DNA of 64,000 nt from Obrimoposthia wandeli (lineage: Eukaryota), in contig CDROCS010000496.1 of the NCBI GenBank assembly GCA_977020255.1, positions 496,001 to 560,000 on the forward strand, in the 5' to 3' direction. The position numbers were made by a program, and so were the translations under genes. How positions within the stretch are numbered: position 1 is the stretch's first letter; every line of letters begins with the position of its first letter. A model generated the notes under the pieces. The model made no database searches. It had not been told where the DNA came from and saw nothing but the letters and a program-made list of their open reading frames with translations. Positions 23,651-42,882 of the stretch are shown here, one piece after another.

Positions 23651-23669
23651 TGGTGCCCCGAGTGAGGAT
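23651..23669 (+). other. Primer-binding site, complementary to elongator tRNA-Met 3' end
   Basis: TGGTGCCCCGAGTGAGGAT, 8 nt after the LTR end; matches the complement of the metazoan elongator tRNA-Met 3' end as I recall it (TGGTGCCCCGTGTGAGGAT) with one difference. Confidence 0.75.
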
Positions 23670-23694: not shown

Positions 23695-23975
23695 GTAGAA
23701 TAAGTTCAGATAAGTTTTGGAAAATTGAGAATAAGTTTCAGGTGAATAGAATAAGTTCAGATAAGTTGCAGATAATTGAGAATAAGTTTCAGGTAAATAG
23801 AATAAGTACAGATATTAAGAATAAGTTTCAGATATTAAGAATAAGTTTCAGATATTAAGAATAAGTTTCAGATATTGAGAATAAGTTTCAGATAAATTGA
23901 GAATAAGTTTCAGATAAATTGAGAATAAGTTTCAGCAGAAGAAAATAGACAATTGAGAATAAGTTTCAGAAGAAG
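23695..23975. repeat. Leader tandem array 1 (20-22-bp units, core AGAATAAGTTTCAG)
   Basis: About 13 copies of the core directly downstream of the PBS. Confidence 0.9.
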
Positions 23976-23989
23976 ATATAAGTAAATTG

Positions 23990-24735
23990 AGTTAAGAATT
24001 TGATAAGTGTTGAGAAATCGAGTAGATTTGTTCCTCGAAGTTGAGAAATTGATAAGTGTTGAGAAATCGAGTAGATTTGCTCCTCGAAGTTGAGAATTTG
24101 ATAAGTGTTGAGAAATCGAGTAGATTTGTTCCTCGAAGTTAAGAATTTGATAAGTTTTTGAGAAATCGAGTAGATTTGTTCCTCGAAGTTAAGAATTTGA
24201 TAAGTGTTGAGAAATCGAGTAGATTTGTTCCTCGAAGTTAAGAATTTGATAAGTCTTGAGAAATCGAGTAGATTTGTTCCTCGAAGTTAAGAATTTGATA
24301 AGTGTTGAGAAATCGGGTAGATTTGTTCCTCGAAGTTAAGAATTTGATAAGTTTTGAGAAATCGGGTAGATTTGTTCCTCGAAGTTAAGAATTTGATAAG
24401 TTTTGAGAAATCGGGTAGATTTGTTCCTCGAAGTTAAGAATTTGATAAGTTTTGAGAAATCGGGTAGATTTGTTCCTCGAAGTAAGAATTTGATAAGTTT
24501 TGAGAAGTCGAGTGGATTTGTTCCTCGAGCCAGTAAATTTTATAAGCGAGAATCGAGTGGATTGATACTCGAAGTAATTAATTGAATAAGTTAAGTCGGG
24601 AGACTCTGTCCTCGAACTAATTAAAAAGATAAAAATCGTAAATAAATTGATAAAGTGAGAATCGAGTGGATTGATACTCGAAGTAATTAATTGAATAGGT
24701 TAAGTCGGGAGACTCTGTCCTCGAACTAATTAAAG
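23990..24735. repeat. Leader tandem array 2 (49-bp unit, ~11 copies) plus two related longer units
   Basis: Unit gttaagaatttgataagtgttgagaaatcgagtagatttgttcctcgaa (period 49, e.g. 24181 vs 24230); 24550-24735 has two copies of gaatcgagtggattgatactcgaag...gtcgggagactctgtcctcgaactaattaaa. Confidence 0.92.
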
Positions 24736-25142
24736 AGATAAAAAATCGTAAAATAAGAATTGTGAAATAAGATAAAAATAATAAGTATATTGATATCGTA
24801 AACGAATACATAATTGATAAGACAACGGATAATAGAAAAGGACCCGCGTATAATACTAGAAGACAAAGTCAGATTCCCAAGGAAGAGATAAATAATAATA
24901 AAGTTAACCGAATTGAACAGGTTCCCCAAACAGATAACAAAGTAACAGAAAAGACTAGAGTCGAAGAAAACGTATCAGAAAGAGACGTTGATCAATCAGC
25001 GGTTTCAACCGGCAGTTTTAATTTGACTGAATTATTTGGTGACATAGACCAAGAAGAATTTGAAATTGCCAATCCAGTAGTGATTGAGGAAGTTCCATTG
25101 AATAATATTGAAGAAATAGTTGAAGAAGTTATAGTTGAAAAT

Positions 25143-28100
25143 ATGGCTCAACCAGGAGCTCAAGCAGAAAATAATGCAGGAAATAATGTAGGTGACATGA
25201 ATGCCGAGCAGTTGGCACAAGCTTTAAATGCGACGTTGAGACCCAATTTTTCAGGATCATTGCAGATTACAAAGTTTAAAGGAGACGAGGAAAGTATTTG
25301 TGACTTCCTCGCAGAATATTCGAGTTGTGCAGATGTTCAAGGATGGAACGATAAAGAAAAATGTGTCAGAGTACAGGCACATTTAACCGGATTAGCACTT
25401 GAGGTGTATAAACATTTGACAGAAGCAGAACGTTTAGATTGGCCAACGTTGGAAAATGCTTTTATTGGAAAATTGGTATTAGGAGATTTAGCCAAAGTAA
25501 ATAAGCGACTCATGAGAGAACGGAAACAGAAACATGACGAAGGCGTGAATGAATACGCGTATGTTTTGAGAACCTTGGCCGCAAGAGCGTACCCAAGAAG
25601 AATAATGAGAAATCAGGACGGTAATCCTGTAGCTCCAGAAGCACAAGCAGCGGAAAATGACCGGAACCAAAATGAAATGGCAGAGGTCTTGTTAGATATA
25701 TTTAGAGGAGGATTGAAAAAGGATATTAAAGTGTTATTAGCAGTATCGGATACAAATGATTTTGATAACGCCGTGCGAAAGGCGAGAGAGATAGAGAAAA
25801 ATATAAAGAATAATGCAGCATTGGCAATCTACGCAATGACTGCAGGTGACGACGATAAGACAAAGGTCTTCGTGAATAAAACAGAACCGAGTAATTTTCA
25901 GAATCGAAATTATGGACAAAATAAGTTTGAAAAAATAGATGAATCCAGTAACGGAAATAGAGATAATTTCCGAAGTAGGAATCGAGATGATTCGAGAGGT
26001 AGAAATAATAGTGAGTCTTGGAACAGGAATCGAGATGATTCAAGAGGTAGAAATAATAATGATTCGTGGAATAGAAATAGAGATGATTCCAGGAATAGAT
26101 TTAATAGAGATAATTCAGGAAATCGCCAACCTTGGAGAGGAGACGATAGGAATTATAACGCCAACAGAGGAGAGCGAAGTGACTCTCGATTTGGAAATAA
26201 TGCAGGAAATAGTGACGGAAGATTCAATAATCGAGGAAGCGGTTTTGAATCGAATTTCCGAAGAAATGATTTTAGAGGACGCTATGATAATAGACAGAAT
26301 AGTCGTCGAGTACAGTTCGAAGATGAACAAAATAAGATAGATATTCGAGGGAGAATAATGTGTTATACGTGTAAGCAAATGGGTCACTATTCGAGAGATT
26401 GTACGAGAAGTAAAGAGTTCGGAACTAACAGATTTGGAAATAATAATTTCGGTAATAATAATTTTGGAAATAATTATAGAGGATATAATTCACCTCCGCC
26501 ATGGAATAGAGGTGGTGGATATACTCCACAGCCATGGAGACTGAATAATCAGTATACAGATAGACAACAGTCACCAGGTAGATACAATAACTATGCAGAC
26601 AGACAGCAAGGAGCTGAGAGATACAATAATTACGTAGGACAGCAAGGAGCTGAGAGATATAATAATTCCGGTAGATATAATAATAATAATGTTGACAAGA
26701 CAAATAGTCGAGAGAGTTCGCCGAAACCGAAAGGAAATTTTAGTTATGTAAGCGATGACAGTGATAGGAATCGCGAAACCGAGCTTCGACGCGAAATAGA
26801 TTTTGAAGATAGTGATAGTAAATTTGAACGAATGTTGGGAATAATTAAAGATTCACCACATACAAAGATGGCGAATTCATCTACGTTGTCGAAACAAGAG
26901 AAAAATCTACACTCGAGAGAAGAGATGAATGATTTAATGAATAGAATATTAGAAGCGTACGAGACACCAATAGAGAAAACGTGTAACGCACAACCTATGA
27001 CTGATCATGTAGAAGCAGCAAGAAATGCTACGAGTATGGAAAATGTAAAAAAGATAATTAGTGAAGCTAAGGAAACGTTGAATCAACCGTTAGATGAAAC
27101 GAGTGAAGCTCCAGAAGTTTTGGCCAAATTGCAAACAATTAAAGTGCACCGATTGGAAGAAGTGCGTGCAGAATTGGTTAAACATAGTCATGATAACTTG
27201 GGTTACAAAGAAGTACCCCGAGGACTATTGAAAGGTTATGGTCGTTATGTACAGAGATCAAACCAAACAGGAACGATGAAAATTTCACTTCGATTAATTT
27301 CCGGACAGATAATACATGAAAAACTTAACGTGTATCAAACAATGAAAACGATTCGGAAAAAGTTGGCTGAGAAACTTGAAATTGATGGAATGAATATGTT
27401 GTTCCATTATAAAGGGAGATCACTAGATGATGAGGACGTACCAGTCGAGTTTGGATATCCGATAGGAAATGAATTAGAGGAAAAAATTGATGTCATCACT
27501 GTAGGACGTCAAGAGTTAGTAGATAATGAAGGATTAACCGAGATATTGAATTCTGCGTTAGAAATGATAAAAACGCCTATAGAAATTTTAGACAGTTCAA
27601 GTGAAAGCGGAGATGGTGATGTGGCTGAAGCTTGGAACAAGACGTCTACGCCAGAACCGTACGTAACTGAATTGCAAGACATGAATTTGGAAAATGAGTT
27701 GACAACTCCAGTGGTCGAGGTACCACCAGAACCAGATATAATTCCAATCAGACAAGATGAAGTCACGGATACAGCTAACCAAGTGAGACAAAACGAAACC
27801 GTAACCCAACTAGTAGGAGAAGACGAAGTCTCCGAGATTGTAGATTTGGATTCACCAATTTGGCATGCCGCATACAAAGATAGACAAGCAGAGCAAATGA
27901 TGCGACAAAGTGAAGAGATTGGCCATGAAGAAGGACCAAGTCAAGAGATACAGTATAATGGTGAAACGTATGATCCAGGAGAGAATCAAACTGAGTATCA
28001 GTATTTTCGAAGAGGACCTGGAAGACCTAGAAAAGGCGAAAGTATATTACGAAATGTTCTAACTGCACCACAGACTGATGAAGAGAGACATCTAAGTATT

Positions 28101-31100
28101 GGACAGTTAGCAGCGTCATTAGAGCAGTATAGTGCAGAGAGGAATGAAGATATCAGAGGTGATATGAATTCGGAAACTCCAAGTAGTAAAGATATACTTA
28201 CGGGAATTCTCAGGCAAGTGAAGCCGAAGTTGTTTAAAATGTACAGAGATGAAACAACCGATATAACAGACAATTTGACTAAAGCAGTCAGATCACAGAT
28301 GTCTGCAGTAAAGAGAATGACCGCGAATCATGTATACCATGCATCGATAGATAGATTTTATGACGGTGAAGTTTTAGCGAGATTATGTGGAAACCAGACT
28401 ACAAATAAAAAGTTAATTACAGCAATCACATATCTATGTTTCCAATTGACGGAACGAACGAGCCAACCTCACGAAGTCAAACAAGGAATAAATGAAGCAA
28501 TGTATTTGATCGAGAATGTGTTACAGAGACGAATTGACGAAAATGGAGGTTGGGCAAAATTAAGTGACTACGCTAAAACCATTTTGGAAATGAATGAAGA
28601 CGATGACGAACAATGTCATGAGAATCGTCAAAAGGAAAATAAACAATACCGTCCGAAAGAGAGAAACAATCAACCAAATATGTCCACAACAATGATGATG
28701 ATGATGTTAGTAATGTTTATGGGAATGCAACAGGCATCAGGATTGATAGCATATGACTGTAGCATACCAAAGATGGGACAAAAGTATTCACTGCTTGACA
28801 GCGAAGACTGCCCAGAGTCACAACCGTCAAAACTAGAAGTTCAAGGTGTTGAAAACTACTTTGTGTATCAGGATGTTGATAAAGTACAAGTAGAAGTGAA
28901 AGAATGTTCAATCCATTCAAGTTATCACGAATTCTATTGTGGTCATAGAAGTTTTATGTCAGAAATCACACCTACCACACCGTACAAGGCACATAAGGTT
29001 TTGCCGAGAGATTGCGAAGATGCATTTCGAACGGGAACGATAGAGGTAGACAAGAATTACAAACCTGAAGTAAAAATTGGAGTGAGACGATACGAAACAG
29101 TCACGAGAGTCGGACAACGATGGGCCGATGGATCTTGTGACGGAGGAACAAAAAACGTGCGTGGAACCAAAGTAACCGAGTTAGTAATGGACGTAACTTA
29201 CAAAATCGAATTAAAAACATGGACCGCCAATTTTGATAAAAAGACACAACTAATGATGAAGTATCCAGAATGTAAAATGACAGATACATCTTGTTTTACA
29301 GGCGAATCCACAATTGTGTATAACATAAATCCGAAGCAATGCTCTTTAGTATTTTTGAAAGAGATTAGCTTTAATAAAATAAAAGGATTCCTGTATAATA
29401 AAGATGGAGAAGGATTCCTGTATAATAAAGTTGGAAAAGGATTGCTCAATGAAACAAGACCAATCCCAATGACAAAGACACCTACACTGTTAATGGCAAC
29501 ATCAATAGAAGAAGGATTGATATTTATTAAAAAGAGAAACAAAGCGCGATGCGGAATGACTGTTAGTACTACAAACTATCCAGGAATAGTTTTGTCTAAA
29601 GAAGCAATAGCATTGGCAGAAACCAAGCTAAAACCAAAAGATATGCAGCTACATACGTATTTTAATAATAAAATTGATTTCTATTATCATAAAGGATTGA
29701 TGCAAATGGAACAGTTATATCGAATGATGATTGAAAGAGATTGCCAGCTAAACAAAGAGATCGTGAGAACAAAGTTAGCATTAGCTATTACGAATCCAGA
29801 CATGGTAGCACCATTATTACCCTTGGATGAAGGAGTATTTGCTAAAACCATGGGAGAAGTATTGTATACTTACAAGTGTAATAAAGTAGAGGTACAGTTG
29901 AGAAAAACAAATCGATGTACGAGTGAATTGGCAGTAACGTATAATTTAAAAGATCTTTTTGTTGAACCAATCACGAGAATGTTACTTCCAAAAGACACTC
30001 CAACTAAAGAAATCAGCTGCTCTAATATAATGGCACCTGAATATCAGATGACGAATAATCTATGGATAACGTTACCTGATCGGAAGCCAACGAAAACCCC
30101 AGCGATGATAAGAATGACGAATCTTAAAGGTAAAATGAAATTCCAAGCGGTGGAAAATATGGAGAACGCAGGATTGTACAATGAAAAAGACTTAAAAGCG
30201 GCGTGGAACGAAATAATGTTTCCAGTAAGAAGAGCCAGAGTACTTACGGAGATGGTACATCGAGCATTACCGCCAGGAGCGAGATATGCGAATTTTGATA
30301 TGTTATTGTCGCCAAGTCATTTCAAGGAAGCAGCACATCAGACACTTAGAAAGATGTGGGGGAAATTCCTTGTTTTAGGACAATTATTTTCGGGTATCAT
30401 AGGTATTTATGTTATAATTAAATTTGTGCAGGTAATTATAGCCCAGGTGTTGTCTACGTATAGTTTATACAGGATAACCGGAATCACCTGGCAACTTATA
30501 ATTGGATGTTTTCCATTTTTAGCAAAATATCTAATGCACCATCATCACGAGAACGAGTTGCGAGCCCTCAAGAAGGAACAACACCAAACGAGAACCATGA
30601 TGAGAGAACCAAGAAACTGTCGAGACGATAACGACGACGATAATGATAGTCCAGGAGTATATGCAAAGATACCAGGAAAACCAAAGATTCCGTTACCAGA
30701 CAAGGAAGAAGTGGCGTTAAACCTATACCCAATGAAGGAATTGAAGGAAGAGAAGGAAAAATTCAAGAGAGGCATCTTAATGATAAGATGGCCTAAAGTG
30801 AGCTACAGTGAAATTCCACAAGCAGAGGAAAAAGACAAAAAAGATAATTCCAGAAGAATTCTGAAGTCTAGGATATCAAATGAGAATCCAAATGCTCCAC
30901 CACAAGTAGCAGTAACATTGAACGGAAGAGAATATCTTGCCGAAGTTGATACCGGATCTGCAGTATCAGTACTGAGTAAAGAAATCTTGTCATCAAAAGA
31001 ATTAAGAGAAGTATGTCCTAGAAAACAGACATTTGTTAACGTGAATGGTACAGATGTAGTGTCGGAAGGAACACTGAAATGTTCATTGAATATCGATGGA

Positions 31101-31334
31101 AGAGTATTACAGTTAAATGCTAGAATATTCACAGATTGCGGTAGTCCAGTCATGATTGGGATGGACGTAATACGAATGTTTGAAGGAATAATTATACTAC
31201 CAAACAACAAGAGTTATAAGAATGACAGTTCAGTGAGAGAGATAAAAATGTTGAGAGGACCTATAGTCGAAAAGGAAAAATGCACTACGTTCCGTATGGG
31301 AAGTTCGTACCCAGACAAAAACAGGAAGCGCTAG
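25143..31334 (+). CDS. Polyprotein segment 1: Gag - UBL - AT-hook - Bcl-2-like - Env glycoprotein - aspartic protease 1
   Basis: ORF 25023-31334, first ATG at 25143 (MAQPGA). Capsid-like FLAEYSSCADVQGW..EKC; CYTCKQMGHYSRDC knuckle (26361-26402); VDTGSAVSV...IGMDVI protease (30900-31200). Confidence 0.93.
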   Translation: MAQPGAQAENNAGNNVGDMNAEQLAQALNATLRPNFSGSLQITKFKGDEESICDFLAEYSSCADVQGWNDKEKCVRVQAHLTGLALEVYKHLTEAERLDWPTLENAFIGKLVLGDLAKVNKRLMRERKQKHDEGVNEYAYVLRTLAARAYPRRIMRNQDGNPVAPEAQAAENDRNQNEMAEVLLDIFRGGLKKDIKVLLAVSDTNDFDNAVRKAREIEKNIKNNAALAIYAMTAGDDDKTKVFVNKTEPSNFQNRNYGQNKFEKIDESSNGNRDNFRSRNRDDSRGRNNSESWNRNRDDSRGRNNNDSWNRNRDDSRNRFNRDNSGNRQPWRGDDRNYNANRGERSDSRFGNNAGNSDGRFNNRGSGFESNFRRNDFRGRYDNRQNSRRVQFEDEQNKIDIRGRIMCYTCKQMGHYSRDCTRSKEFGTNRFGNNNFGNNNFGNNYRGYNSPPPWNRGGGYTPQPWRLNNQYTDRQQSPGRYNNYADRQQGAERYNNYVGQQGAERYNNSGRYNNNNVDKTNSRESSPKPKGNFSYVSDDSDRNRETELRREIDFEDSDSKFERMLGIIKDSPHTKMANSSTLSKQEKNLHSREEMNDLMNRILEAYETPIEKTCNAQPMTDHVEAARNATSMENVKKIISEAKETLNQPLDETSEAPEVLAKLQTIKVHRLEEVRAELVKHSHDNLGYKEVPRGLLKGYGRYVQRSNQTGTMKISLRLISGQIIHEKLNVYQTMKTIRKKLAEKLEIDGMNMLFHYKGRSLDDEDVPVEFGYPIGNELEEKIDVITVGRQELVDNEGLTEILNSALEMIKTPIEILDSSSESGDGDVAEAWNKTSTPEPYVTELQDMNLENELTTPVVEVPPEPDIIPIRQDEVTDTANQVRQNETVTQLVGEDEVSEIVDLDSPIWHAAYKDRQAEQMMRQSEEIGHEEGPSQEIQYNGETYDPGENQTEYQYFRRGPGRPRKGESILRNVLTAPQTDEERHLSIGQLAASLEQYSAERNEDIRGDMNSETPSSKDILTGILRQVKPKLFKMYRDETTDITDNLTKAVRSQMSAVKRMTANHVYHASIDRFYDGEVLARLCGNQTTNKKLITAITYLCFQLTERTSQPHEVKQGINEAMYLIENVLQRRIDENGGWAKLSDYAKTILEMNEDDDEQCHENRQKENKQYRPKERNNQPNMSTTMMMMMLVMFMGMQQASGLIAYDCSIPKMGQKYSLLDSEDCPESQPSKLEVQGVENYFVYQDVDKVQVEVKECSIHSSYHEFYCGHRSFMSEITPTTPYKAHKVLPRDCEDAFRTGTIEVDKNYKPEVKIGVRRYETVTRVGQRWADGSCDGGTKNVRGTKVTELVMDVTYKIELKTWTANFDKKTQLMMKYPECKMTDTSCFTGESTIVYNINPKQCSLVFLKEISFNKIKGFLYNKDGEGFLYNKVGKGLLNETRPIPMTKTPTLLMATSIEEGLIFIKKRNKARCGMTVSTTNYPGIVLSKEAIALAETKLKPKDMQLHTYFNNKIDFYYHKGLMQMEQLYRMMIERDCQLNKEIVRTKLALAITNPDMVAPLLPLDEGVFAKTMGEVLYTYKCNKVEVQLRKTNRCTSELAVTYNLKDLFVEPITRMLLPKDTPTKEISCSNIMAPEYQMTNNLWITLPDRKPTKTPAMIRMTNLKGKMKFQAVENMENAGLYNEKDLKAAWNEIMFPVRRARVLTEMVHRALPPGARYANFDMLLSPSHFKEAAHQTLRKMWGKFLVLGQLFSGIIGIYVIIKFVQVIIAQVLSTYSLYRITGITWQLIIGCFPFLAKYLMHHHHENELRALKKEQHQTRTMMREPRNCRDDNDDDNDSPGVYAKIPGKPKIPLPDKEEVALNLYPMKELKEEKEKFKRGILMIRWPKVSYSEIPQAEEKDKKDNSRRILKSRISNENPNAPPQVAVTLNGREYLAEVDTGSAVSVLSKEILSSKELREVCPRKQTFVNVNGTDVVSEGTLKCSLNIDGRVLQLNARIFTDCGSPVMIGMDVIRMFEGIIILPNNKSYKNDSSVREIKMLRGPIVEKEKCTTFRMGSSYPDKNRKR
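27276..27506 (+). other. Ubiquitin/SUMO-like domain within segment 1
   Basis: MKISLRLISGQIIHEKLNVYQTMKTIRKKLAEKLEIDGMNMLFHYKGRSLDDEDVPVEFG...KIDVITV; beta-grasp pattern with SUMO-like F-x-Y-x-G...D-x-P...IDV; no terminal diGly. Confidence 0.7.
28188..28590 (+). other. Bcl-2-like helical domain within segment 1
   Basis: BH2-like RRIDENGGWAKL (NGGW at 28542-53); degenerate BH1-like GNQTTNKKLITAITYLCFQL at Bcl-2-like spacing. Confidence 0.55.
28680..30540 (+). other. Chuvirus-like (class III, gB-type) envelope glycoprotein within segment 1
   Basis: Signal-like MSTTMMMMMLVMFMGMQQASG then LIAYDC..YSLLDSEDC; ERDCQLNKEIVRTKLALAITNPD..GEVLYTYKC.KVEV..R.T.RC..EL.V, as in chuviral G proteins; C-terminal TM FLVLGQLFSGIIGIYVIIKFVQVII. 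Confidence 0.85.
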
Positions 31335-32090
31335 CAAAGTCGATACTTCACTACAAAAATGTAAATTTCGGACCACAAGATACGACGAGGAGAAAAATAA
31401 CATACGTAAATCTGTCAGAAAGGGATCCCATGAGATTCGAGAGAAAGAGACGAAATATATTAGAACAGTACTATTCAAAAGGAATGGCACGTAAAATGGC
31501 AAGATCAGGTTTAGAAATGTTAAACGCGACAAGCAGTTATGGTCAGGAGATAGTAGTACGATGCGTATGGTGTAGAGTAAAGTTTAGAGAATGGGAACAG
31601 AATGAAAACCCAATGAGACGTCATAAAGAGATGCACCAAATTGTCCATTTCTTTTGAAACTGAAAACGTCAAACGTACCAGAAATCCAAACGGGAAAAGC
31701 ACCCGATTTCGATTACAGTGACGGGATTCCAAAAGGAGAATCAGCTCTAATAACAGGAAGAGTAATAACGAATAGTCGAATTGAAGATATATTCGAAGTT
31801 ATGCGAGAAGTGAACGAATGTGACGAACAATATCGAGAAGTAACTTTCGAAGATCCAAGACTTAAAAAATTGGCAAAAAAGGAATTTTTGCTATAAAAAG
31901 GGATGGTAACGACGTAATTAAATGCCACAAGTGTAAAAAAGAACGAATTATCGACAGATACACTCTTGAGCTACCTAAGAAAATTTTACATCATGAATTT
32001 TGCGAATTTTGTACTTGTAAAAACAAAATAAAGCAAAAAGAACAGAAAACCGAATGTATAATCGAATACCAAATCACACGGAAAGAGATT
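31280..32090 (+). CDS. Polyprotein segment 2: two BIR domains (split across three frames)
   Basis: BIR1 KMARSGL...VVRCVWC..F.EWEQNENPMRRHKEMH[P]NCPFL, completed by one-base repair at about 31637. BIR2 RLKKLAK[K]GIFAIKRDGNDVIKCHKC...ILHHEFCEF, completed by one-base repair at about 31878; this frame runs into ORF 32091. Confidence 0.8.
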
Positions 32091-34496
32091 TTGGCTCAAC
32101 AAGACACACCGGTAGTGTCATTCGTGAGAAGGTTATATCCAAAAGAAGCAGAAAGAATCAGAGAATTGGTAGAATTAAAAATAAAAACTACGCGAAACGG
32201 ATATGGATCGATTTTTGAATTACTGCGAGATAAAGATGACAGTACAATTGAAACAAAAGAGAAAGAGTACATAAATGAACTAGAATACGTACTAGAAGAT
32301 CCGGAATGCGCAGTTTGCATGGTTAACAAAATAGAAGTTGCCTTTCTACCATGCGGACATGTAAGAACATGTCGGAGATGTGCGAATGAAATGGTATCAT
32401 GTCCGATTTGTCGAAGAATAATAGATCGACAAGTGAGAAACATTAGATTTCACTATCCAAACATAGGAAGTGGACGGACAGAGTGTAATAATTCGATAAA
32501 TACAATATACCATATGGGAAACATAAATGGAGCACAGCGACCAGCAGCTATCATTAGAGTAAATAATTTAAGAGTAAAAGCTTTAATTGATACAGGTGCT
32601 GTAGCTTCGATAGTAAGTGAAGACTGTTTGACAGAGGAACAGAAACGAACAATGGCAGAACCAGATGAATTCTTGGTATCGGTCAATGGAGACCCTGTAA
32701 AAGTGACGGGAATATTACCATGTACATTTATAATTGGACGTAATACGATCACTATACCAGTTAGAATCATGAAAGAATGTCCTGAACCTACAATTTTAGG
32801 AATGGATGTATTATCACAACTCAAAGGGATAAGTATTGATTTACAGGATCCAAGATTGAAGGATAGTACATCAAACAGACAAATAAACCAAATTGATGTA
32901 ATTATAGAGAATCCTATAAAAATCGGTAAAAGATCACAATTTCTCATTCAAGGTCACACATTATCAGAAGATAAAGGACCAGTTGTGTTCGAACCATCAC
33001 GAGATTTCATAGAGAAATACGAACTACCAGTTGTGAGTACGGTATGCCTGATCGAAAACCACAAAATACCAGTTAGACTGATGAATACAACCAACAATGA
33101 CATTCTATTATACAGAGGAATGAGGTTGGGAAAGATAGCACAGATGGAGAATTCCACTGTATGCGCTATGAAACTCGATAAAGATACGAATGATTACGAA
33201 GAAATAGTAATCCAATCAGAAAGACTAACAACTAGAGAAAAGAAACAATTACTTGATCTAATACATAAATTTCCGAAAGTAATTGCAAAAAATCCATATG
33301 ACATAGGAGAAACACCTGTCATAAAACATACAATACCACTGACAGAAGACAAAGTAGTCAGAAGAAGACCATATCGAGTACCATTACAATTACAAGATGA
33401 AGTAAAAAGTCAGATTGAAGATATGTCTAAAACAGGAGTAATTAGACCGAGTTTTTCGCCATTCTCAGCACCTGTAGTGTTGGTAAAAAAGAAGGATGGG
33501 AAAATGAGATTCTGTATAGATTTCAGAGAACTGAACAAGATCACAAGAAAAGATGTGTATCCATTACCTAGAATCGAAGAGATGCTCGATAAATTGGGTA
33601 ATTCAGATTATTTTACAACATTGGATTTGCAGAGTGGATACTGGCAAATCGAGATAGAGGAAGAGGATAAACACAAAACAGCCTTTTCTTGCGGAGATGG
33701 ATTATACGAATGCGAAAAGATGCCATTCGGACTGACAGGAGCTCCAGCAACATTTCAGCGTTGCATGAATTTTGTACTCGCATCGTGTGCAAATACGATG
33801 GTTTATATCGATGACATAATAATATTTTCGAAAACGTTCGAAGAACATTTAAAAAATCTTGAAGTTGTATTTAAAAGACTGGAAAACGCTAAATTAAAAG
33901 TTAAACCTACAAAATGCGTATGGGCTAAAGAGCGAGTAACATTTTTAGGACATATAGTATCGAAAGAAGGCATTCGACCTGATCCAGCAAAGATCGAGAA
34001 AGTAAAAGCGCATTTAGCGCCAAAGACTGTTAAAGAGATACAGAGTTTTTTAGGTCTTGCAAATTATTATAGACGATTTGTTGAACATTTTTCAGATATA
34101 GCAACACCATTGAGAAAGTTGACGAGAAAAGATGAGAAGTTCATATGGGGAGAAGAAGCCCAACAAGCGTTCGAGCATTTAAAAGAAAGACTGATAAAAG
34201 CACCAATATTAGCGTTTCCAGATATAAACCGACAATTCATACTAATGACAGATGCAAGTAACTATGCTGTAGGAGCAGTATTGGGACAAGAGGATGACGA
34301 AGGAAGAGAACACGTCATTGCGTATGCGAGTAGAGGATTAAACAGAGCCGAAAGAGGATACTCTGTTATCGAAAAGGAATGTCTAGCCATAGTGTATTCA
34401 TGTAGACAGTACAGACACTATTTGCTAGGACAAAAGTATTCCTGTATACAGATCACAAACCACTACAGTTCTTGTATAAACATAGAGATGAGATGA
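32091..34496 (+). CDS. Polyprotein segment 3: IAP-type RING - aspartic protease 2 - RT - RNase H (N-part)
   Basis: CAVCMVNKIEVAFLPCGHVRTCRRCANEMVSCPICR (32307-32411); LIDTGAVAS..ILGMDVL; RFCIDFRELN..YPLPRI, MPFGL..AP.TFQ, YIDD (33804-15); MTDASNYAVGAVL, YSVIEKECLA. Confidence 0.97.
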   Translation: MAQQDTPVVSFVRRLYPKEAERIRELVELKIKTTRNGYGSIFELLRDKDDSTIETKEKEYINELEYVLEDPECAVCMVNKIEVAFLPCGHVRTCRRCANEMVSCPICRRIIDRQVRNIRFHYPNIGSGRTECNNSINTIYHMGNINGAQRPAAIIRVNNLRVKALIDTGAVASIVSEDCLTEEQKRTMAEPDEFLVSVNGDPVKVTGILPCTFIIGRNTITIPVRIMKECPEPTILGMDVLSQLKGISIDLQDPRLKDSTSNRQINQIDVIIENPIKIGKRSQFLIQGHTLSEDKGPVVFEPSRDFIEKYELPVVSTVCLIENHKIPVRLMNTTNNDILLYRGMRLGKIAQMENSTVCAMKLDKDTNDYEEIVIQSERLTTREKKQLLDLIHKFPKVIAKNPYDIGETPVIKHTIPLTEDKVVRRRPYRVPLQLQDEVKSQIEDMSKTGVIRPSFSPFSAPVVLVKKKDGKMRFCIDFRELNKITRKDVYPLPRIEEMLDKLGNSDYFTTLDLQSGYWQIEIEEEDKHKTAFSCGDGLYECEKMPFGLTGAPATFQRCMNFVLASCANTMVYIDDIIIFSKTFEEHLKNLEVVFKRLENAKLKVKPTKCVWAKERVTFLGHIVSKEGIRPDPAKIEKVKAHLAPKTVKEIQSFLGLANYYRRFVEHFSDIATPLRKLTRKDEKFIWGEEAQQAFEHLKERLIKAPILAFPDINRQFILMTDASNYAVGAVLGQEDDEGREHVIAYASRGLNRAERGYSVIEKECLAIVYSCRQYRHYLLGQKYSCIQITNHYSSCINIEMR

Positions 34497-35737
34497 GTAG
34501 ATTAAACAGATGGTTTCTAAAATTGGCCGAATTCGATCTAGAAATCCGTTATAGAACCGGAAAGTCGAACGGCAACGCAGATTGTTTGTCGAGATTGACA
34601 AATGTAGACGAGAAAGGAAACATAATTCCAGAAGAAGATGAAACCAATGACCAAAAAGGAGAAGCAAATCTACTGACGATTTTGCTAAAGACGGGTAAAA
34701 TAGACAAAGAGATCATCAAAGAACAGAAAGAAGATGAAGAACTGAGTCTAATCAAAGAATTGTTGGTGAAAGGAGATCTAAACGATGAAATGACGAAAAA
34801 TACTCAATAAAAAGAAGGAATCTTGTATATTGTCAATAATGTCGGAAAGATAGTAGTAGTAATTCCGAAGTCATTGAAAACAGCAGTGATGATCCAGTAT
34901 CACGACGGAACACTAGGAGGACATCTGTCAGGGCGAAAGACAATAGCCAGAATCAAAGAGAAGTACCATTGGGATGGTATGGAAGACGACATAAAACAAT
35001 GGTGTAAACAATGTAAAGTATGTTTAACCAGAAAAGACACCGGAACTCGTACTAAAGTTCCACTGAAACCAATGCCAGTTCCCTTGGCACCAATGGAATT
35101 CACAGCGATGGATATATTGGGACCATTGAGAGAATCAAGTAAAGGAAACAAGTATGTCATAGTATTTACGGATTACATGACGAGATGGGTAGAAGCATAT
35201 CCCATGCAGAACCAGAAAGCTGAAACAATAGCGCAAATCTTAGTGGAAGAGATAATATTTCGATACGGAGTGCCTAGAAAGTTGTTAACGGATCAAGGTA
35301 AGAACTTCACTGGAGAAGTCATAAAAGCAGTATCGAAGATATTCGGAATCATGAAGTTACAAACTTCACCATATCACCCACAGACAGATGGTCTGGTGGA
35401 AAGGTTTAATAAAACTTTATGTATGATGGTACAATCCTATTGCTCAGACAAGCAAGAGGATTGGGATAAATATTTACCTTCATGTTTATATGCTTACAGG
35501 AATTCAGTTCGAGAGGCGACGGGTCACACACCATTCTATCTGATGTATCTCAGACAGAACAATATGCCAATGGATCTGGAGTGGACCGAGCCAACATCTC
35601 AGTACCTAGAAACTGAACAATACATTGTCGTCATGAAGGAAAGATTACAAGATGCTTGGACCAAAGCCGGATTGAAGTTGAAATTCAATCAAGAAGGTTA
35701 CAAGGAACAATACGACAAAAAAGCAAAAACCACATGA
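34472..35737 (+). CDS. Polyprotein segment 4: RNase H C-part and integrase Zn/core (in-frame TAA at 34808)
   Basis: TDHKPL in shifted frame, NGNADCLSR, YHDGTLGGHL...CKQCKVC, AMDILGPL, LLTDQGKNF, QTDGLVERFNKTL. Confidence 0.95.
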
Positions 35738-35756
35738 ATTTAGAGTCGGAGATCAA

Positions 35757-38700
35757 GTGATGATATTTTATCCAGTCATCGAACCAGGTCTATCGTTTAA
35801 ACTTCATAGACCATACAAAGGACCCTACAAGGTGATCCAGACAACCTCAACAAATTTGAAAGTAATCAACGAAGAGAATCGGAACAAAGAACCGATGATT
35901 GTACATGCAAATCGATGCAAATTAGTACCAAATAAAGATAATGCGTCACGATATGAGTTAAGATCACAGAAATCGAAATCGAATACCAATACCATTAAAC
36001 TTACACGAATGGTAAGTGATCGGAACTACATAAACATGATGACGAGTGGTAGCGAAGAAAAACCAGCGAGAATTGGTATGCTCAGAATGAAGTACCAAGA
36101 GGAAAAGGAAGTAATCCGACACATCGCACCACAAGAGATATTAGAAGAAGACGAAGAGATAATAGTCGTTTTCGAAAAAACACAACCAACAGATGTAGCT
36201 AAAGAAGTCATTGTGAAAGATGCACTAACAAACGAATTTCTGTGCGAACTTAGAGTATCATACTACGACGGAAATACATTAGTCGCAGCACTTTATCAAA
36301 ATTCCAATGTGTTTACGACTGAGAAAGTGATAATCGAAATCACATTGACACCAAACATAGTTGCATGGCAGAACTATGACAGTACTGAAGCAGGACTAGC
36401 CAGTCAGGAAGAAAAAGAACCGGCCGGTGGTCACATACTGCATGGTACACCAAAAAGACTCAAACAAGAATACCACGATGTAATAATGGTATTACGTAAT
36501 TCACATGGGAAAAGAGATATCATGAGAGTCCATTTAATCGACGCTGACACTGAAAAGATAATTTGTCAGATGGACACCAAATACTTTGATGGAAAGACAA
36601 TTGTATGTTGTATACCAGAATCTCACCGATTAGAGACAGATCAAACGGAAGTATCTGTAAGGTTGAGCGTAATAGAAGGATTCCATTCGCCAACCTATCC
36701 GGAAGTGACTAACAATAAAATCATCAAAGCAACGGCAGAATTACGCATTGACAGCGGATACCGGAAGTGGGAAGCTAAAAATAAAAAACCACAAAGAATC
36801 AATATGATCCGAGAACAAGTAACAACTTCAAACCAGCCAAAATATCATGCTGAAATAGTATCATCCGCGCCAAGTGTGATCACATCGATAAACGACGAAA
36901 TTATAATTTTACTAAAAAATCGATGGCCGTCATCAACCGAGATACGAGTAAATTTAATTAATCATGCGAAGACACCGATATCTAAGCTGAATGTTACCTA
37001 TTTCGATGGATTGTCCATCATGGGTAAATTGGAAACAATTGTCATGTGCTATGGAGCACAGTTCCAAGTTGAGATACTTAAAGATAGTGTAATACCGTAT
37101 CCGATTCACAAATACGAAGGGGAAATCAATCCAATTATTCTAACACCTTCATTAATTTCAGTCCAGACAGACATACCAGAATACCCTTCGAGCGAGTCTA
37201 GTGAAGACAGCGAACCAGAAAGTAACGATACAGAATCAACAGAATCCGAAGATAACATAATAGAGCGATTCGGAAGAACCATGGAGATTGAATTCGCTAA
37301 AGAGAGCAGAAAAAGACAAAACATAGAATTCGTGAAACAGAATATACAAGAAAGACGAATTAAATCTGCAGAAGAGACCGAGTCGGAAGAAGACTCAACA
37401 AAGGAACAGACATCAGAGACAAAGATGAATATCTCTCCAGCAATACGAATGCTGAGAGGAAAGAAACTGGCGAAACTATCCAACATCGACGAACAGATAG
37501 AGAAGAGATTAGAAAGACTAAAACTTGAAGAGTCAGAATTAATGCCACCAATGAGTGAGATCATTCCAGGTAAGTTATACCTCGGAAATGTGGAGGATGC
37601 AACAGATGAAAAGAAACTGTTGGAACAAGGAATAACATATGTGATCAACGTTACAATGAATCACAAATCGCAATATCAGACGATCAGAGCTATGACATTA
37701 AGAGTAAAAGACTCAATGGACGCTAATCTTCTCGAATGGTTCGTAGAAACAAACGAAATACTTCACAGAGAACTCCGGAACAAAGGAAAAGTGTTGGTAC
37801 ATTGTCAGAAAGGAATTTCTCGATCAGCAACCCTAGTATTAGCATATCTAATAAAGACTAGACGAATGCAGGTACTAGAAGCGTTAAAATACCTACAGGA
37901 GAGAAGAAGTATTGCAAACCCAAATCTTAATTTTTTGGGACAGTTGGCAAATTACCAACTTCTGTTGCAAGAACAAAGACGGATGGACGACATTCCTGAG
38001 GATCCAAAGGAAAAGAATTTCCTCCAAGCATTATCATTGACCGGGTTATTTTTAGCCGGAGTCGATAAAATTACACAGATAATGCCAAAAGTATTTTTAT
38101 GTCATCCAGGAGATATAGATACTGCTGGATTAAAGTTCCATAGTATCAACCGAGTAATCAACATTGTTGAAGTCGGAAATGAGATAATTAGTCTGTGTCA
38201 AAATACTGAAGATGACACCACTCGATACATACATGCTTCCAATCGAGAGATAAACGATGCACAACAACATTTGACGAAATTGACTCAAACCATCCAAGCT
38301 GAAGTCACAGAAGGAAACGGCGTTCTGATATATCAGAAAAAAGGTACAATGTTAGCGCCTACCATAGGTGTATCCTTGTTGGTAGAGTACCATGGTCACA
38401 CGCCAGAAGAAGCAATGGTCTACATCAAACAGAATAGACCGAATACGGAATTCAAACCGTTACTCGTTCGAGAAATAGAGAAATACACCGAAAAGAGGAA
38501 ACAACAACGAGAAACAAATGAAGCTACAACAACAGCGCCCAGCTTTCAATACCAAAGATTGCTAGCGATAGGCTTGTTAAGTTGTTTAATGCCGATAACG
38601 GGAGCACAGGAGATAGGCTCCAACCACGGAAATAGTTCCTGGTTCAACGAAATCCAAAATTACACCATACAGTACCATACGCCAGCACTGATGATGCTAT

Positions 38701-39809
38701 TAGTGTTGTTAGGACTAATTGATGTGTGGATCATCCGAAAATGTCTTCGATCTATGAGAACCGACAGTAAAAGATTTCAGTTTGTAAAGATGAAAAGACC
38801 AAATGGACCAACGAACAAAGTGCTTGTGTATCTAGACGAAAGGATCGAGGACAACATAGTAAATGAAGCGATATTTTACCCACAAAACAGAATACTGAAT
38901 CAATTTCGAATAGATTACGAAGCTGACCGACAGCGCACACTTGACCGAATATCAACAACATTCGCCGGATGCAAGCGAAGTAAACGAGTTGTAAAGGAAA
39001 TACAAAAAGATGCTGATACAAAAGGACCAACGTATATATTCAACGGAGATGTCATCAAAACACGTGAGTATGGAAGTAAGAGAGTAATAATTGAAACAAT
39101 GGAAGGACATAAAACATGCTTGTCCGCCAAAAATGGATTCGGAAAGTTGACGATACAAGGTAAACCGGTACAGTTGATTATCGGAAGAGATGGAATCGAG
39201 GAGATGTCAAAACAACGACAGACAACAAAACGATACAATCAGAAACAGATATCTCTCAAACGATTGATAATTAAAACCCTTTGTAAAAGGTCGGTCAAGG
39301 CCCTGTGCACCGTTGCACAAGGATTGATTTATGGAGTAGTAATTGGATTGGTACTGCAAGCCATGCCAACCAGTAAAGCCGAATTGATGACACTATCCGA
39401 ATATAATTTACATTTGAGAAATCTAGACAACACCCTAGAAATAATCAAGACATCCCACAGTAAAGCCGTGATGATCATGTGTGTAAAAGGATGTCCAGGA
39501 CGAATGTGTATAGTCCCAGCGACCGAAATGATAACACTTAGTGGACATTATGGAATTAGTGTTGTCACATGTGAAGACTACATATTTGGACAAACTAAAA
39601 TAGTGCTTCTCAGTGACAAGTCCAACCAAAGTGCACACAAATTTAAAATATTAACCATCAAGAGTAAAGGAATACCAGCAGTACGTTACGGTATTCTAGA
39701 ATTGGTTAATCCAATACTCGCACTGATCATTGGATTTATAATATTAATATTACTCATCTTGTTTTGTTGTTCAAAGATAGAGTCGAGATCAAAAAAAGAA
39801 ACGTCATGA
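35757..39809 (+). CDS. Polyprotein segment 5: integrase C-terminus (GPY) - three ~90-aa repeats - DUSP - pseudo-DUSP - two membrane proteins
   Basis: PYKGPYKV..VHANRCK; DUSP 37551-37960 with VLVHCQKGISRSATLVLAYL; second DUSP-fold copy about 38070-38490 with VLIYQKKGTMLA; four hydrophobic segments 38556-39770. Confidence 0.9.
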   Translation: MMIFYPVIEPGLSFKLHRPYKGPYKVIQTTSTNLKVINEENRNKEPMIVHANRCKLVPNKDNASRYELRSQKSKSNTNTIKLTRMVSDRNYINMMTSGSEEKPARIGMLRMKYQEEKEVIRHIAPQEILEEDEEIIVVFEKTQPTDVAKEVIVKDALTNEFLCELRVSYYDGNTLVAALYQNSNVFTTEKVIIEITLTPNIVAWQNYDSTEAGLASQEEKEPAGGHILHGTPKRLKQEYHDVIMVLRNSHGKRDIMRVHLIDADTEKIICQMDTKYFDGKTIVCCIPESHRLETDQTEVSVRLSVIEGFHSPTYPEVTNNKIIKATAELRIDSGYRKWEAKNKKPQRINMIREQVTTSNQPKYHAEIVSSAPSVITSINDEIIILLKNRWPSSTEIRVNLINHAKTPISKLNVTYFDGLSIMGKLETIVMCYGAQFQVEILKDSVIPYPIHKYEGEINPIILTPSLISVQTDIPEYPSSESSEDSEPESNDTESTESEDNIIERFGRTMEIEFAKESRKRQNIEFVKQNIQERRIKSAEETESEEDSTKEQTSETKMNISPAIRMLRGKKLAKLSNIDEQIEKRLERLKLEESELMPPMSEIIPGKLYLGNVEDATDEKKLLEQGITYVINVTMNHKSQYQTIRAMTLRVKDSMDANLLEWFVETNEILHRELRNKGKVLVHCQKGISRSATLVLAYLIKTRRMQVLEALKYLQERRSIANPNLNFLGQLANYQLLLQEQRRMDDIPEDPKEKNFLQALSLTGLFLAGVDKITQIMPKVFLCHPGDIDTAGLKFHSINRVINIVEVGNEIISLCQNTEDDTTRYIHASNREINDAQQHLTKLTQTIQAEVTEGNGVLIYQKKGTMLAPTIGVSLLVEYHGHTPEEAMVYIKQNRPNTEFKPLLVREIEKYTEKRKQQRETNEATTTAPSFQYQRLLAIGLLSCLMPITGAQEIGSNHGNSSWFNEIQNYTIQYHTPALMMLLVLLGLIDVWIIRKCLRSMRTDSKRFQFVKMKRPNGPTNKVLVYLDERIEDNIVNEAIFYPQNRILNQFRIDYEADRQRTLDRISTTFAGCKRSKRVVKEIQKDADTKGPTYIFNGDVIKTREYGSKRVIIETMEGHKTCLSAKNGFGKLTIQGKPVQLIIGRDGIEEMSKQRQTTKRYNQKQISLKRLIIKTLCKRSVKALCTVAQGLIYGVVIGLVLQAMPTSKAELMTLSEYNLHLRNLDNTLEIIKTSHSKAVMIMCVKGCPGRMCIVPATEMITLSGHYGISVVTCEDYIFGQTKIVLLSDKSNQSAHKFKILTIKSKGIPAVRYGILELVNPILALIIGFIILILLILFCCSKIESRSKKETS

Positions 39810-41222
39810 TCTCGCAAGACGAACAGGTCAAATGAATTTACAAAATTCAACACAATTATACCAAGACCACCATTTTTAGACGAACCAGCACCAGAATACC
39901 AGCCAACGATATATGAACACATCGAGGAAAGACCGTACTATATGAGTAATTTGACTTGTTTCATTGAAGTTCCTGAGTTTAGGAATCGAACGATCATAGG
40001 AATCATGCTGATCGCACAAATCACCACTACCAAGGCTAGTTATGAGATCATGATCAGTAAATGGAGACAAGACGTAATACGGGCAATATACATAGAAATT
40101 CCCCTACTAAAAACAAATCACGTAGTAGACATTCATCTACAGACGTCAGCAACTGACAATATCGATCAGAAATTGTATGTCATCCGACAGGTCAGAATAA
40201 AAATCGACCAAAATACACCCGTTTACAATTTAATATTATTGCATCATGAAAGAGTGTTATACCTACGGATAACAATATCAAAGAGGAAGCGGATTATCCA
40301 AAGCATCCGAACAAAGTCATTAATATTACCTAGAGATGAGCGCATCTGGAAAATTGTCGACAGGATTATGATCACAGGTAGACGACGTAAAGCCGTATGG
40401 AATTCCGTTAGGTTATTTTTCAGATTGCTAGAAACTGACAGCGTGACAGTAATGTGTCCCAACCCAGATGGCGTAATCAGATTCGAAATCCAAAGCCAAA
40501 TGTTAGTACCACATTTTAACACAGAATGTCTGTGTAATCGAATTGCCAGTAATTCTACAGAGACCTCGACCATAATCATGATAATAACAGGTGAAATATT
40601 CTACATAACTCTAAGATACCAGAACCGTCGATTTCGCAGATACGGTATAAGTATCAAACCCAGGAAAATCATTCCCAGAAGACCAATTCTAGTCAAAAAG
40701 AAGGCAAAGGTAATCGAAAGTAAACGACATTCCAAGAAACCGACAGTGATCAAAACAAAGACAGAAGCGAAAGAAAAAGAGTCCAATCCCAGAAACCAAA
40801 GTACAATTATTAAGAGGACAAGAGTGAGGGGAACGATCCCACTAGATCCCAAACATCATTTTCCATCCAAAATAATAATACCTGTTCCACCAGAAACAAA
40901 ACACCCAAATCCCCGAATTTTTAGAAAATCGGACATAATACATGGAAACCGATCAAAACCCATGGAAATATCATTCGAACCGACAAACAACAAAATGAAG
41001 TATGATTATAAATCATCAGACAGCGGAATAACAGCGGTCAATGCCCTAATTGGAATGGCCGTAGTGTCAACAGCAGTGGTTTTATTGACAATCGTGTGCG
41101 TAAAAGGCAGTCAAGTATGCCCAGGAATACGACGGAAATGCGAAGGATTGCGATGCTGTGACACACCCATCATGGAGGAAGTGGAATTGCGACCCTTACC
41201 TCCGCCTCCCATCAAGATATGA
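39810..41222 (+). CDS. Polyprotein segment 6: predicted type I membrane protein (same frame as segment 5 past a single TGA)
   Basis: Frame is open from 39810 into ORF 39942-41222; signal-like IIGIMLIAQITTTKA, TM AVNALIGMAVVSTAVVLLTIVCV, tail RPLPPPPIKI*. No family recognised. Confidence 0.7.
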   Translation, partial: SRKTNRSNEFTKFNTIIPRPPFLDEPAPEYQPTIYEHIEERPYYMSNLTCFIEVPEFRNRTIIGIMLIAQITTTKASYEIMISKWRQDVIRAIYIEIPLLKTNHVVDIHLQTSATDNIDQKLYVIRQVRIKIDQNTPVYNLILLHHERVLYLRITISKRKRIIQSIRTKSLILPRDERIWKIVDRIMITGRRRKAVWNSVRLFFRLLETDSVTVMCPNPDGVIRFEIQSQMLVPHFNTECLCNRIASNSTETSTIIMIITGEIFYITLRYQNRRFRRYGISIKPRKIIPRRPILVKKKAKVIESKRHSKKPTVIKTKTEAKEKESNPRNQSTIIKRTRVRGTIPLDPKHHFPSKIIIPVPPETKHPNPRIFRKSDIIHGNRSKPMEISFEPTNNKMKYDYKSSDSGITAVNALIGMAVVSTAVVLLTIVCVKGSQVCPGIRRKCEGLRCCDTPIMEEVELRPLPPPPIKI

Positions 41223-41345: not shown

Positions 41346-41645
41346 ATGGCCGAGGAATGCCCAATATGTTTAGAAGATCTAACCGAACGAAGAACAAGAC
41401 CCGAAACCTGCAACCATTTACACCACGAGGAATGTTTATCGACATGGATCAGAACTTATGGACAGTTCGGACACCCAACATACCCTCGTTGCCCTATATG
41501 CAGAAGACAATTCGCAAGATTCGTCATGTTAGAACCCAACCAAAGGGATGTATATGTACAGGTGGTATTCTGCTGGAAGAATTTCGGAGAGTGTTGGTGT
41601 TATTACTGTTTGTCAGATCGACAAAATCAGACCACTTTTGTGTAA
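41346..41645 (+). CDS. Small RING-H2 protein 1
   Basis: MAEECPIC...TCNHLHHEEC...CPIC plus C-terminal CWKNFGECWCYYC; TATA-like gtatataaaa at 41301. Confidence 0.85.
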   Translation: MAEECPICLEDLTERRTRPETCNHLHHEECLSTWIRTYGQFGHPTYPRCPICRRQFARFVMLEPNQRDVYVQVVFCWKNFGECWCYYCLSDRQNQTTFV

Positions 41646-41705: not shown

Positions 41706-42011
41706 ATGTCTGGAGAATGTTCCATCTGCTACGAGAGCATCGTGGACTTCTACACCAAGCCCAACAACTGCGACCACTTTTTCCACGTCGAATGCCTCGA
41801 GACGTGGATTCCCATCGCAAACAGCAACAACCCACTCGACTTCCCAACCTGCCCGATGTGCAGAGCGACCTTCTCAGTACACTACGTGTACAACCAAGAC
41901 AGCCTCCAAGCAGTGGTACCCATCGTACACTGCTGGAAAACCATCTGCGATTGCTGGTGCTCGTTCTGCGTGGAGGAGCGAAGCACAGGCCAGCCCAATC
42001 CCCAACAATAA
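41706..42011 (+). CDS. Small RING-H2 protein 2
   Basis: MSGECSIC...NCDHFFHVEC...CPMC plus CWKTICDCWCSFC. Confidence 0.88.
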   Translation: MSGECSICYESIVDFYTKPNNCDHFFHVECLETWIPIANSNNPLDFPTCPMCRATFSVHYVYNQDSLQAVVPIVHCWKTICDCWCSFCVEERSTGQPNPQQ

Positions 42012-42345
42012 TCGAAGGTAACTTTCTGACTTGAACGTGACATCATGAACTACCCTGTGTATCGCAAACCGCGATAAATTAGCTACCATAATTGTAATCA
42101 TAATTATATAATCTTGTGAACTGTAAATTGACCATTACCATTTTTATGTATGATGTTTAACTGAAATTGTAATTATTATACTGAATTTCTAAAAAAGACA
42201 ATTTTTATGCTTAGTGTGAATGCGTAAACATGCCTAAAATCGAAACAAAACTCGGTAGGATTAGATAACTAAGGATTCATTTTGAAATAGAATTTAAATT
42301 AACGATGAGAACGGTGAACCCCAAATTGAAAGGAGTCATTTTCTC

Positions 42346-42882
42346 ATGCAGATGTTGTGCTCCGTATGCATGGAGAAGATTTGGGCGGTATCGGCATCCC
42401 CTGTCGGCTGCCGTCACAAATTTCACGAGGAGTGCCTCTATTTGTGGACCAAGGTTCGAACCTCCGGACAAATCACCTGTCCACTGTGCCGGACACCCTT
42501 CGCCAAATGGACACTCCAGAGCCGCGGAAGACACAAAGGCACCCGATCGCCTGCCAGCTGCATTGGTGGCATCCATTGCCAATGCTACGTGTGTCTCGCA
42601 CGCCGGCGCGACACACAACTGGGCGTCCGCGAGAGATGGCGGTCTAGTCGAGACTGCCACTCGTGGTTCCAGGCCAGACGGCACTGGATTGAAAACCATA
42701 CCATGAACAGGCAGCACTTCGACCTGTTCATCGACAGCCCGCATTTGACCCGGAGCCAGCAACTCCATTTGTACAACGGGGACAGTCCGTCCTTTCCCGA
42801 CCTTCCCCTGGAGCAGGTTCTACGCTACCTGACCAGTCGGAACCAGCCGACAATAACAATTGACCTCACACATGAAAACTGA
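42346..42882 (+). CDS. RING-H2 protein 3 with C-terminal SIM-like motif
   Basis: CSVC...GCRHKFHEEC...CPLC, CIGGIHCQCYVC, C-terminal PTITIDLTHEN*. Confidence 0.85.
   Translation: MQMLCSVCMEKIWAVSASPVGCRHKFHEECLYLWTKVRTSGQITCPLCRTPFAKWTLQSRGRHKGTRSPASCIGGIHCQCYVCLARRRDTQLGVRERWRSSRDCHSWFQARRHWIENHTMNRQHFDLFIDSPHLTRSQQLHLYNGDSPSFPDLPLEQVLRYLTSRNQPTITIDLTHEN

Follow-up and report, generated by a model that had tools for sequence, protein, structure and literature searches.

When the reading frame of a large retroelement is interrupted at one place after another, do the breaks separate genes, shift the ribosome by design, record real decay, or reflect the way in which the sequence was assembled? 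This question is raised by a stretch of 64,000 nucleotides (nts) from Obrimoposthia wandeli (assembly GCA_977020255.1, contig CDROCS010000496.1, positions 496,001 to 560,000), here called the window, of which positions 21754-45042 (23.3 kb) are occupied by a recently inserted Ty3/Gypsy element bounded by long terminal repeats (LTRs). From the ATG at 25143 to the stop codon at 41222 this copy holds a series of long open reading frames (ORFs), which the initial annotation had joined into one polyprotein of about 5,360 amino acids (aa); the ORFs and the two internal stops (34808-10 and 39807-09) were found where it had placed them. We consider it quite likely that the element is a young copy of a family with more than 4,000 members and a single 5,360-aa frame, and that the nine breaks of the window copy are consensus errors of the assembly. 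The element and all its features lie on the + strand.

The breaks were located by comparison with other genomic copies of the element. Set 1 comprises 24 copies retrieved with a query over 31000-32200 and picked from 39 non-self matches for their distance from the contig start. Set 2 comprises 38 copies drawn with the reverse transcriptase (RT), i.e., 38 of 39 non-self matches, the one omitted being already in set 1. The full-length alignment omits one set 1 copy that is rearranged. In the copy alignments, nine sites were found at which the length in the window is not the commonest one; every one of them is a run of A residues. Its length at 31317-31321 (break 1) recurs in 2 of 31 scored set 2 copies, at 31875-31880 (break 3, the heptamer singled out by the initial annotation) in 2 of 29, at 34432-34435 (break 4, within RNase H) in 2 of 37 and at 34809-13 (break 6) in 3 of 31. 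It is absent from the set 2 copies scored at 35725-35729 (break 7, 0/32), 39791-97 (break 8, 0/25) and 39842-45 (break 9, 0/35). The state of the window at 31625-31627 (break 2, within the BIR domain) is found in none of 37 set 2 copies and at 245 of 4,358 places genome-wide. At 34796-800 (break 5), where too few set 2 copies could be scored, 4 of 22 set 1 copies share the length of the window. Alignment with other genomic copies, the check proposed from the outset, thus shows that, at each of the nine sites, most of those retrieved independently of the site in question differ from the window.

Much of the earlier placement of these breaks stands. Those put near 31878, 34433 and 35727 are indeed single-base differences in run length (breaks 3, 4 and 7), and both internal stops are lifted by compensating pairs, breaks 5 and 6 around the first, where the net frame class is that of the window in 30 of 38 cases, and breaks 8 and 9 flanking the second. 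Two positions had to be corrected. All 24 aligned rows have the same length over 31240-31290, and the frame change assumed at about 31260 lies at break 1; likewise, 4,113 copies are identical to the window over 31628-31641, and the change assumed at 31637 lies at break 2. The breaks had also been said to fall mostly in homopolymers; homopolymers they are, but “mostly” is too weak, since nine out of nine sites are in A-runs.

At the commonest run lengths the frame spans 16,083 nts, or 5,360 codons and a stop (16,080 nts in the window), which is the length obtained earlier after a net correction of -3. The ATG at 25143 is kept in 22 of 24 rows and is preceded by an in-frame stop in 15. Among the 35 set 2 copies covering 30850-40250, four are stop-free throughout and thus open across all nine break sites. 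The ratio of non-synonymous to synonymous polymorphism (pN/pS), calculated from variants shared between copies in 19 of the 24 rows after five noisy ones had been dropped, is 0.00-0.27 in all 15 segments of 25143-41219, including those between breaks; the entire ORF is under purifying selection. Distant relatives of 2,146-4,844 aa carry env, protease (PR), RT, RNase H (RH) and integrase (IN) in one protein and are colinear with the element across breaks 4-7. The per-site copy counts, the four open copies, the low pN/pS and the one-protein relatives together support a single ORF of 5,360 aa in this family, as originally proposed. An extension of this ORF upstream from 24771 is ruled out by the in-frame stop in 15 rows and a pN/pS of 0.36.

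The breaks of the window copy itself are probably errors of the long-read consensus. In 9.4 kb, its private substitutions amount to 10 synonymous, 3 non-synonymous and no nonsense changes, against nine one-base indels. Over 62 rows, 351 of 720 one-base differences (49 %) fall in runs of at least four bases, which hold 6.8 % of the bases, and 268 of these 351 are on the shorter side. Nine copies with no more than five LTR substitutions contain between 1 and 36 frame changes; between their paired LTRs, 28 indels and 18 substitutions were counted. Such a pattern is typical of long-read consensus error. In an independent marine metagenome, one contig each is unlike the window at 34431 and 35725. 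The LTRs of the window copy had been described as near-identical and are so (99.8 % alike): over the 1,888 bases aligned, they are distinguished by a single substitution and an indel in a homopolymer, in addition to a deviating terminal base of the 3' LTR.

Several observations weigh against this account. The remaining 31 of the 35 set 2 copies are broken, at scattered places, and no natural copy was seen to be open over the whole of 25143-41222, the full length having been pieced together from counts. The public sequencing runs, three of which are from one sample that may itself be the source, provide contigs pooled over thousands of copies rather than reads of this locus; of the earlier proposal of long-read errors in an intact element, the intact family ORF stands, and error in this particular copy is likely, as inferred from the indel pattern. 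The number of frame changes rises with that of LTR substitutions (rho 0.63, p 0.011, 15 copies), and more closely with that of LTR indels (rho 0.89); noisy contigs raise both counts, yet some real decay may also fit. At break 2, a linked allele is rarer in copies with the state of the window (3/100 vs 24/100, p 1e-5, in the first 100 listed matches), a skew that random error alone would not yield, although it could come from young copies crowding the noisy ends of contigs, as suggested by where the listed matches lie and how long their contigs are. Finally, the processing of the polyprotein and the roles of its BIR-RING module and phosphatase, set out below, are predictions from sequence.

The strongest competing explanation keeps the single family ORF and takes the breaks of the window to be real, the runs having slipped during reverse transcription by the element's own RT at insertion or during later host replication, which would leave a dead copy. 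A-runs are natural slippage sites, the lengths seen in the window do recur in 0-10 % of the RT-drawn copies, and the rise of frame changes with LTR divergence is what such decay would produce. However, substitutions normally far outnumber indels in natural decay, whereas the LTRs of this copy differ by two substitutions over 1.9 kb and its coding part has three private non-synonymous changes against nine indels. Moreover, equally young copies span from 1 to 36 breaks. We regard real breakage as unlikely.

A different history can be imagined for break 2, which is common to all 24 copies of set 1. A small but genuine sub-lineage might carry it by descent, producing nothing beyond Gag-Env-protease and depending on intact copies for movement in trans; the other eight breaks would then be errors. 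Several carriers have few indels elsewhere (0-0.5 per kb), four of them group on the tree, and the linked-allele skew already mentioned points the same way. However, set 1 was selected by a query that itself contains the break, and the RT-drawn copies lack it (0/37). Exact patterns of the BIR junction match 245 places in the state of the window and 4,113 in the other, so that the broken state makes up 5.6 % genome-wide. When a further 20 copies of each junction state were taken in list order, wherever about 5 kb of flank was present, the carriers showed a median of 8.9 indels per kb versus 0.94 in the non-carriers (p 2.5e-6). On a tree of 69 rows, from which 23 noisy rows (20 of them carriers) had been dropped, the state changes 16 times compared to 18.8 times after shuffling (p 0.09) and forms no clade, and no diagnostic substitution was found near the site. 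An inherited or programmed BIR break is ruled out as the principal explanation by set 2, the genome counts, the noise load and the tree; a minor sub-lineage of this kind is improbable. The sharing of break 2 within set 1 is mostly search bias. This is a trap of some generality, as an error-bearing query retrieves copies with the same error and thereby imitates an inherited frameshift.

The initial annotation had left open a programmed -1 shift of the ribosome, at 31226-31334 or at 31875-81, which would set Gag-Env-protease apart from Pol. Such a shift is very unlikely: an A-rich heptamer does lie at 31875-81, and shifts of this kind are often located downstream of the first protease and ahead of Pol, but the commonest state needs no shift at these sites, the slippery heptamer occurs 8 times in the region versus 10.4 expected after triplet shuffling, three downstream stretches of 80 nts fold like shuffled sequences (z 0.00, -0.04 and 0.52) and thus offer no stimulatory structure, and A_AAA_AAG is a bacterial-type slip site that works poorly in eukaryotes. 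With the frameshifts being likely artefacts and any recoding signal missing, it is the family itself that matters.

The two junction patterns add up to 4,358 places in the 1.35-Gb assembly, and the family thus has at least 4,358 copies in the genome. If all of these matches were full length, they would account for about 7 % of the assembly, a simple arithmetic figure that may include haplotype duplicates. At two places, L030-L032 (G000:C3326) and L075-L077 (G000:C1771), family copies are nested in or beside each other, one of them inverted, which possibly reflects real nesting or misassembly.

The ends of the element are those of a Ty3/Gypsy retroelement, with direct LTRs (21754-23642 and 43153-45042) that begin with TG and end with CA, and a short target-site duplication of 4 bp (21750-21753 and 45043-45046). 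Duplications of 4 bp were seen at three further family copies as well. The 5' LTR (1.89 kb) contains internal tandem arrays of 48 bp and about 30 bp. A motif resembling a primer-binding site (PBS) lies at 23651-23667, 8 nts past the LTR end, and may resemble the 3' end of an elongator tRNA-Met. The usual gap between LTR and PBS is 1-3 nts; the longer spacing found here (23643-23650) is present in 21 of 25 sequences examined, and the motif has 5,413 exact matches across the genome. No clear polypurine tract was found ahead of the 3' LTR (43120-43152). The 5' leader (23696-24752) is again rich in tandem arrays, with units of 20, 49, 51 and 109 bp.

The polyprotein ORF (25143-41222, broken at the nine A-runs in the window copy) opens with Gag (25143-26405), whose capsid-like N-terminus is similar to the N-termini of relatives and which ends in a single CCHC knuckle (26361-26405). 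It is followed by a putative ubiquitin-like domain (27270-27458) with weak but consistent matches to ubiquitin, ISG15 and SUMO (Pfam E 0.017, below the cut-off), and by a possible BCL2-like helical region (28365-28553) that is likewise sub-threshold (Pfam E 0.13). The same region of the relative P0129 matches BCL2 with an E of 0.001. A PDB search with a profile covering env and the region before it brought up no BCL2 protein, and the ESM Atlas gave no usable match for 27300-28800. The env domain (28746-30635), a fusion glycoprotein of the Monjiviricetes type (Pfam E 1e-94), is in frame with Gag and protease. A model of the env region, although of low confidence (mean predicted local distance difference test, pLDDT, of 50), has only class III fusogens (gB, GP64) among its listed matches. 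Env contains a hydrophobic segment at 30396-30452, and a further hydrophobic stretch preceding 28746 is visible in the translation but stays under the threshold of the hydrophobic-segment scan.

Two aspartic proteases (30906-31175 and 32553-32819), each with a DTG motif in 24 of 24 rows (at 30948 and 32589), enclose a BIR domain (31481-31660, split over two frames by break 2) and a C3HC4 RING finger (32298-32429), both detected by Pfam. The remainder of Pol follows with RT (33483-33959, YIDD at 33804), RNase H (34146-34534, split over two frames by break 4) and the H2C2 zinc finger and core of integrase (34862-35380, Pfam), so that the Pfam matches of the window ORFs reproduce the PR-RT-RH-IN order that is a hallmark of Ty3/Gypsy elements. 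Downstream lie three related units of about 60 aa (36126-37035, 24-28 % identity) to which no family could be assigned; a single-sequence fold of 35985-37160 has a pLDDT of 32 and is unusable. The next domain is a dual-specificity phosphatase (37575-37958) with its HCx5R motif intact in 22 of 23 rows and DUSP10 as the best PDB match, followed on its 3' side by a second, degenerate stretch of the same type. The C-terminal region (38679-41102) has four hydrophobic segments and no Pfam family. Three separate RING ORFs stand between the polyprotein and the 3' LTR: RING-H2 ORF A (41346-41645, 99 aa, pN/pS 0.30), RING-H2 ORF B (41706-42011, 101 aa, pN/pS 0.04) and RING ORF C (42346-42882, 178 aa, pN/pS 0.18), the variants again being shared between copies. 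In public contigs, depth drops about five-fold past 42300 and many loose ends are seen at 42120, within an interval of roughly 42120-42900. Given this fall in depth, ORF C is probably a variable module present in only part of the family.

How might such a protein operate? One LTR-driven RNA would yield one polyprotein without recoding, and Gag, Env and Pol would consequently be made in equal amounts; splicing or selective degradation are candidates for providing the usual excess of Gag over Pol. The matching public data listed no RNA run, which speaks neither for nor against expression. The chain would enter the endoplasmic reticulum by way of the hydrophobic stretch before env, so that env would come to lie in the lumen, while the segment at 30396-30452 would bring the proteases and Pol back to the cytosol. 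Cleavage into the separate parts would then fall to signal peptidase and the proteases of the element. By analogy with the planarian element Burro1, the released BIR-RING module would act as a ubiquitin ligase of the inhibitor of apoptosis protein (IAP) type and block caspases, and the phosphatase, as its likeness to DUSP10 suggests, would damp signalling by stress-activated mitogen-activated protein kinases (MAPKs). Between them, the two would keep the host cell alive during replication of the element.

The closest described systems are the Burro elements of planarians, in which one ORF of 4,873-5,140 aa encodes domains similar to ubiquitin and BCL2, a BIR domain and an env that lies between gag and pol in the same frame (PMC6431247). 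In the parts of the Burro descriptions covered here, Burro1/GYPSM1 and the Burro-like giant Gypsy elements of dugesiid planarians share with the present family the thousands of copies, the one ORF of about 5,000 aa (4,873 and 5,140 there, 5,360 here), a Gag with CCHC, a putative ubiquitin/SUMO-like domain and a possible BCL2-like region (weakly supported and below threshold here, respectively), an env related to that of mononegaviruses and placed in frame after gag and ahead of protease, BIR followed by PR-RT-RH-IN, accessory ORFs, and a host that is here likely to be a triclad as well (PMC6431247). The element differs from them in its length (23.3 kb versus more than 30 kb) and in the one CCHC knuckle found compared to two or three; MATH_TRAF and ankyrin, which together with a length above 30 kb mark Burro1 proper, have no Pfam match in the window (PMC6431247). 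A dUTPase-like region between PR and RT, a Burro trait detected with HHpred in the same source, gave no Pfam or PDB sequence match here. In contrast to the Burro elements as described in those parts, two proteases flank the BIR-RING module, and integrase is followed by an intact phosphatase, the three repeat units, the four hydrophobic segments and, before the 3' LTR, the three separate RING ORFs. The phosphatase, the membrane-protein tail and the RING genes were not found in the Burro descriptions covered, though the main Burro papers and their supplements may list them. The same limit applies to the literature at large, which gave no match for a dual-specificity phosphatase captured by an LTR/Gypsy retrotransposon. 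No named Burro protein occurs among the matches listed, and the likeness is one of descriptions; compared in this way, the element shares most of the Burro features that could be assessed and would work like Burro.

Recently, the BIR-RING protein of Burro1, B-IAP, was reported to protect stem cells, with reference to Lee et al. 2026, in a family that occurs in land and freshwater planarians (PMC13465017). Both elements carry a BIR and RING module within the retroelement polyprotein; in the available part of that account, anti-apoptotic function and stem-cell expression are demonstrated for Burro1, whereas the module is known here from its sequence (PMC13465017). The present family would extend the Burro design with new cargo, namely a conserved phosphatase, for which a MAPK phosphatase is the best match among solved structures. 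With a second lineage that carries additional signalling cargo, it could be tested whether such elements are mutualists or mere protectors of the cells in which they replicate.

The RT-RH region falls into a clade of 15 rows with unnamed env-bearing elements (SH-like support 99 in a FastTree of 107 rows), and two more env-bearing rows lie outside. Metagenome polyproteins such as P0122 (3,735 aa), P0274 (4,844 aa), P0126, P0125, P0130, P0040 and P0044 show up to 63 % RT identity and have env in frame with PR and RT, but those scanned gave no BIR, RING or dual-specificity phosphatase match. Protease-like domains are repeated in P0274 (up to seven Pfam stretches), P0128, P0001 and P0126. With several proteases per polyprotein among the relatives, protease duplication is therefore a trait of the clade. 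P0130, an env-PR-RT-IN protein of the clade, appears in NCBI as part of a metagenome bin assigned to Flavobacteriaceae, probably owing to eukaryotic contamination. P0144 carries a glycoprotein of the env Pfam family beside DUF5641. The chuvirus-glycoprotein elements of mosquitoes belong to BEL/Pao rather than Gypsy. Judging from the part of the mosquito study available, their glycoprotein is of the same Pfam family (PMC7642597); env is only about 25 % identical.

Among the 120 listed matches of a host HSP90, the Dugesia japonica protein ranks first at 85 % identity (the next being 83 %), a likeness that makes a triclad the likely host. One marine metagenome holds half of the sampled words and is the sole basis for a marine habit; the literature gave no match for retrotransposons in a marine triclad genome. 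Put together, one may tentatively picture a retrovirus-like lineage that is active and enveloped, lives probably in a marine planarian outside the reported range of Burro, and obtains capsid, class III fusogen and enzymes by way of a single polyprotein threaded through the membrane. To control host stress and death signalling, it would use a captured enzyme resembling MAPK phosphatases, along with an IAP and three RING ligases, maintained by purifying selection, and it would be part of a wider, unnamed metagenome clade of elements with env in frame. We hold this broader picture to be possible rather than probable.

Other repeats are present in the genome and around the element. About 17 partial HSP90 copies are arranged in tandem with a spacing of 1.9 kb at G000:C2306:123764-159723, and many other diverged, intronless HSP90-like frames are found elsewhere. 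Within the window, 58454-60600 resembles a solo LTR or a related LTR remnant, with matches of 75-88 % to both LTR ends (58835-58931 and 60548-60588) and tandem arrays of its own (56, 61 and 100 bp). Pieces of an older, decayed Gypsy-like pol are recognizable at 9186-9524 and 11427-11810 by their RT-like and integrase-like translations. Finally, 52101-54333 is a 2.2-kb element with inverted repeats of 55 nts and a GC content of 44 % versus about 29 % around it, whose transposase-like frame is broken by one stop (52519-53310 and 53311-54045).

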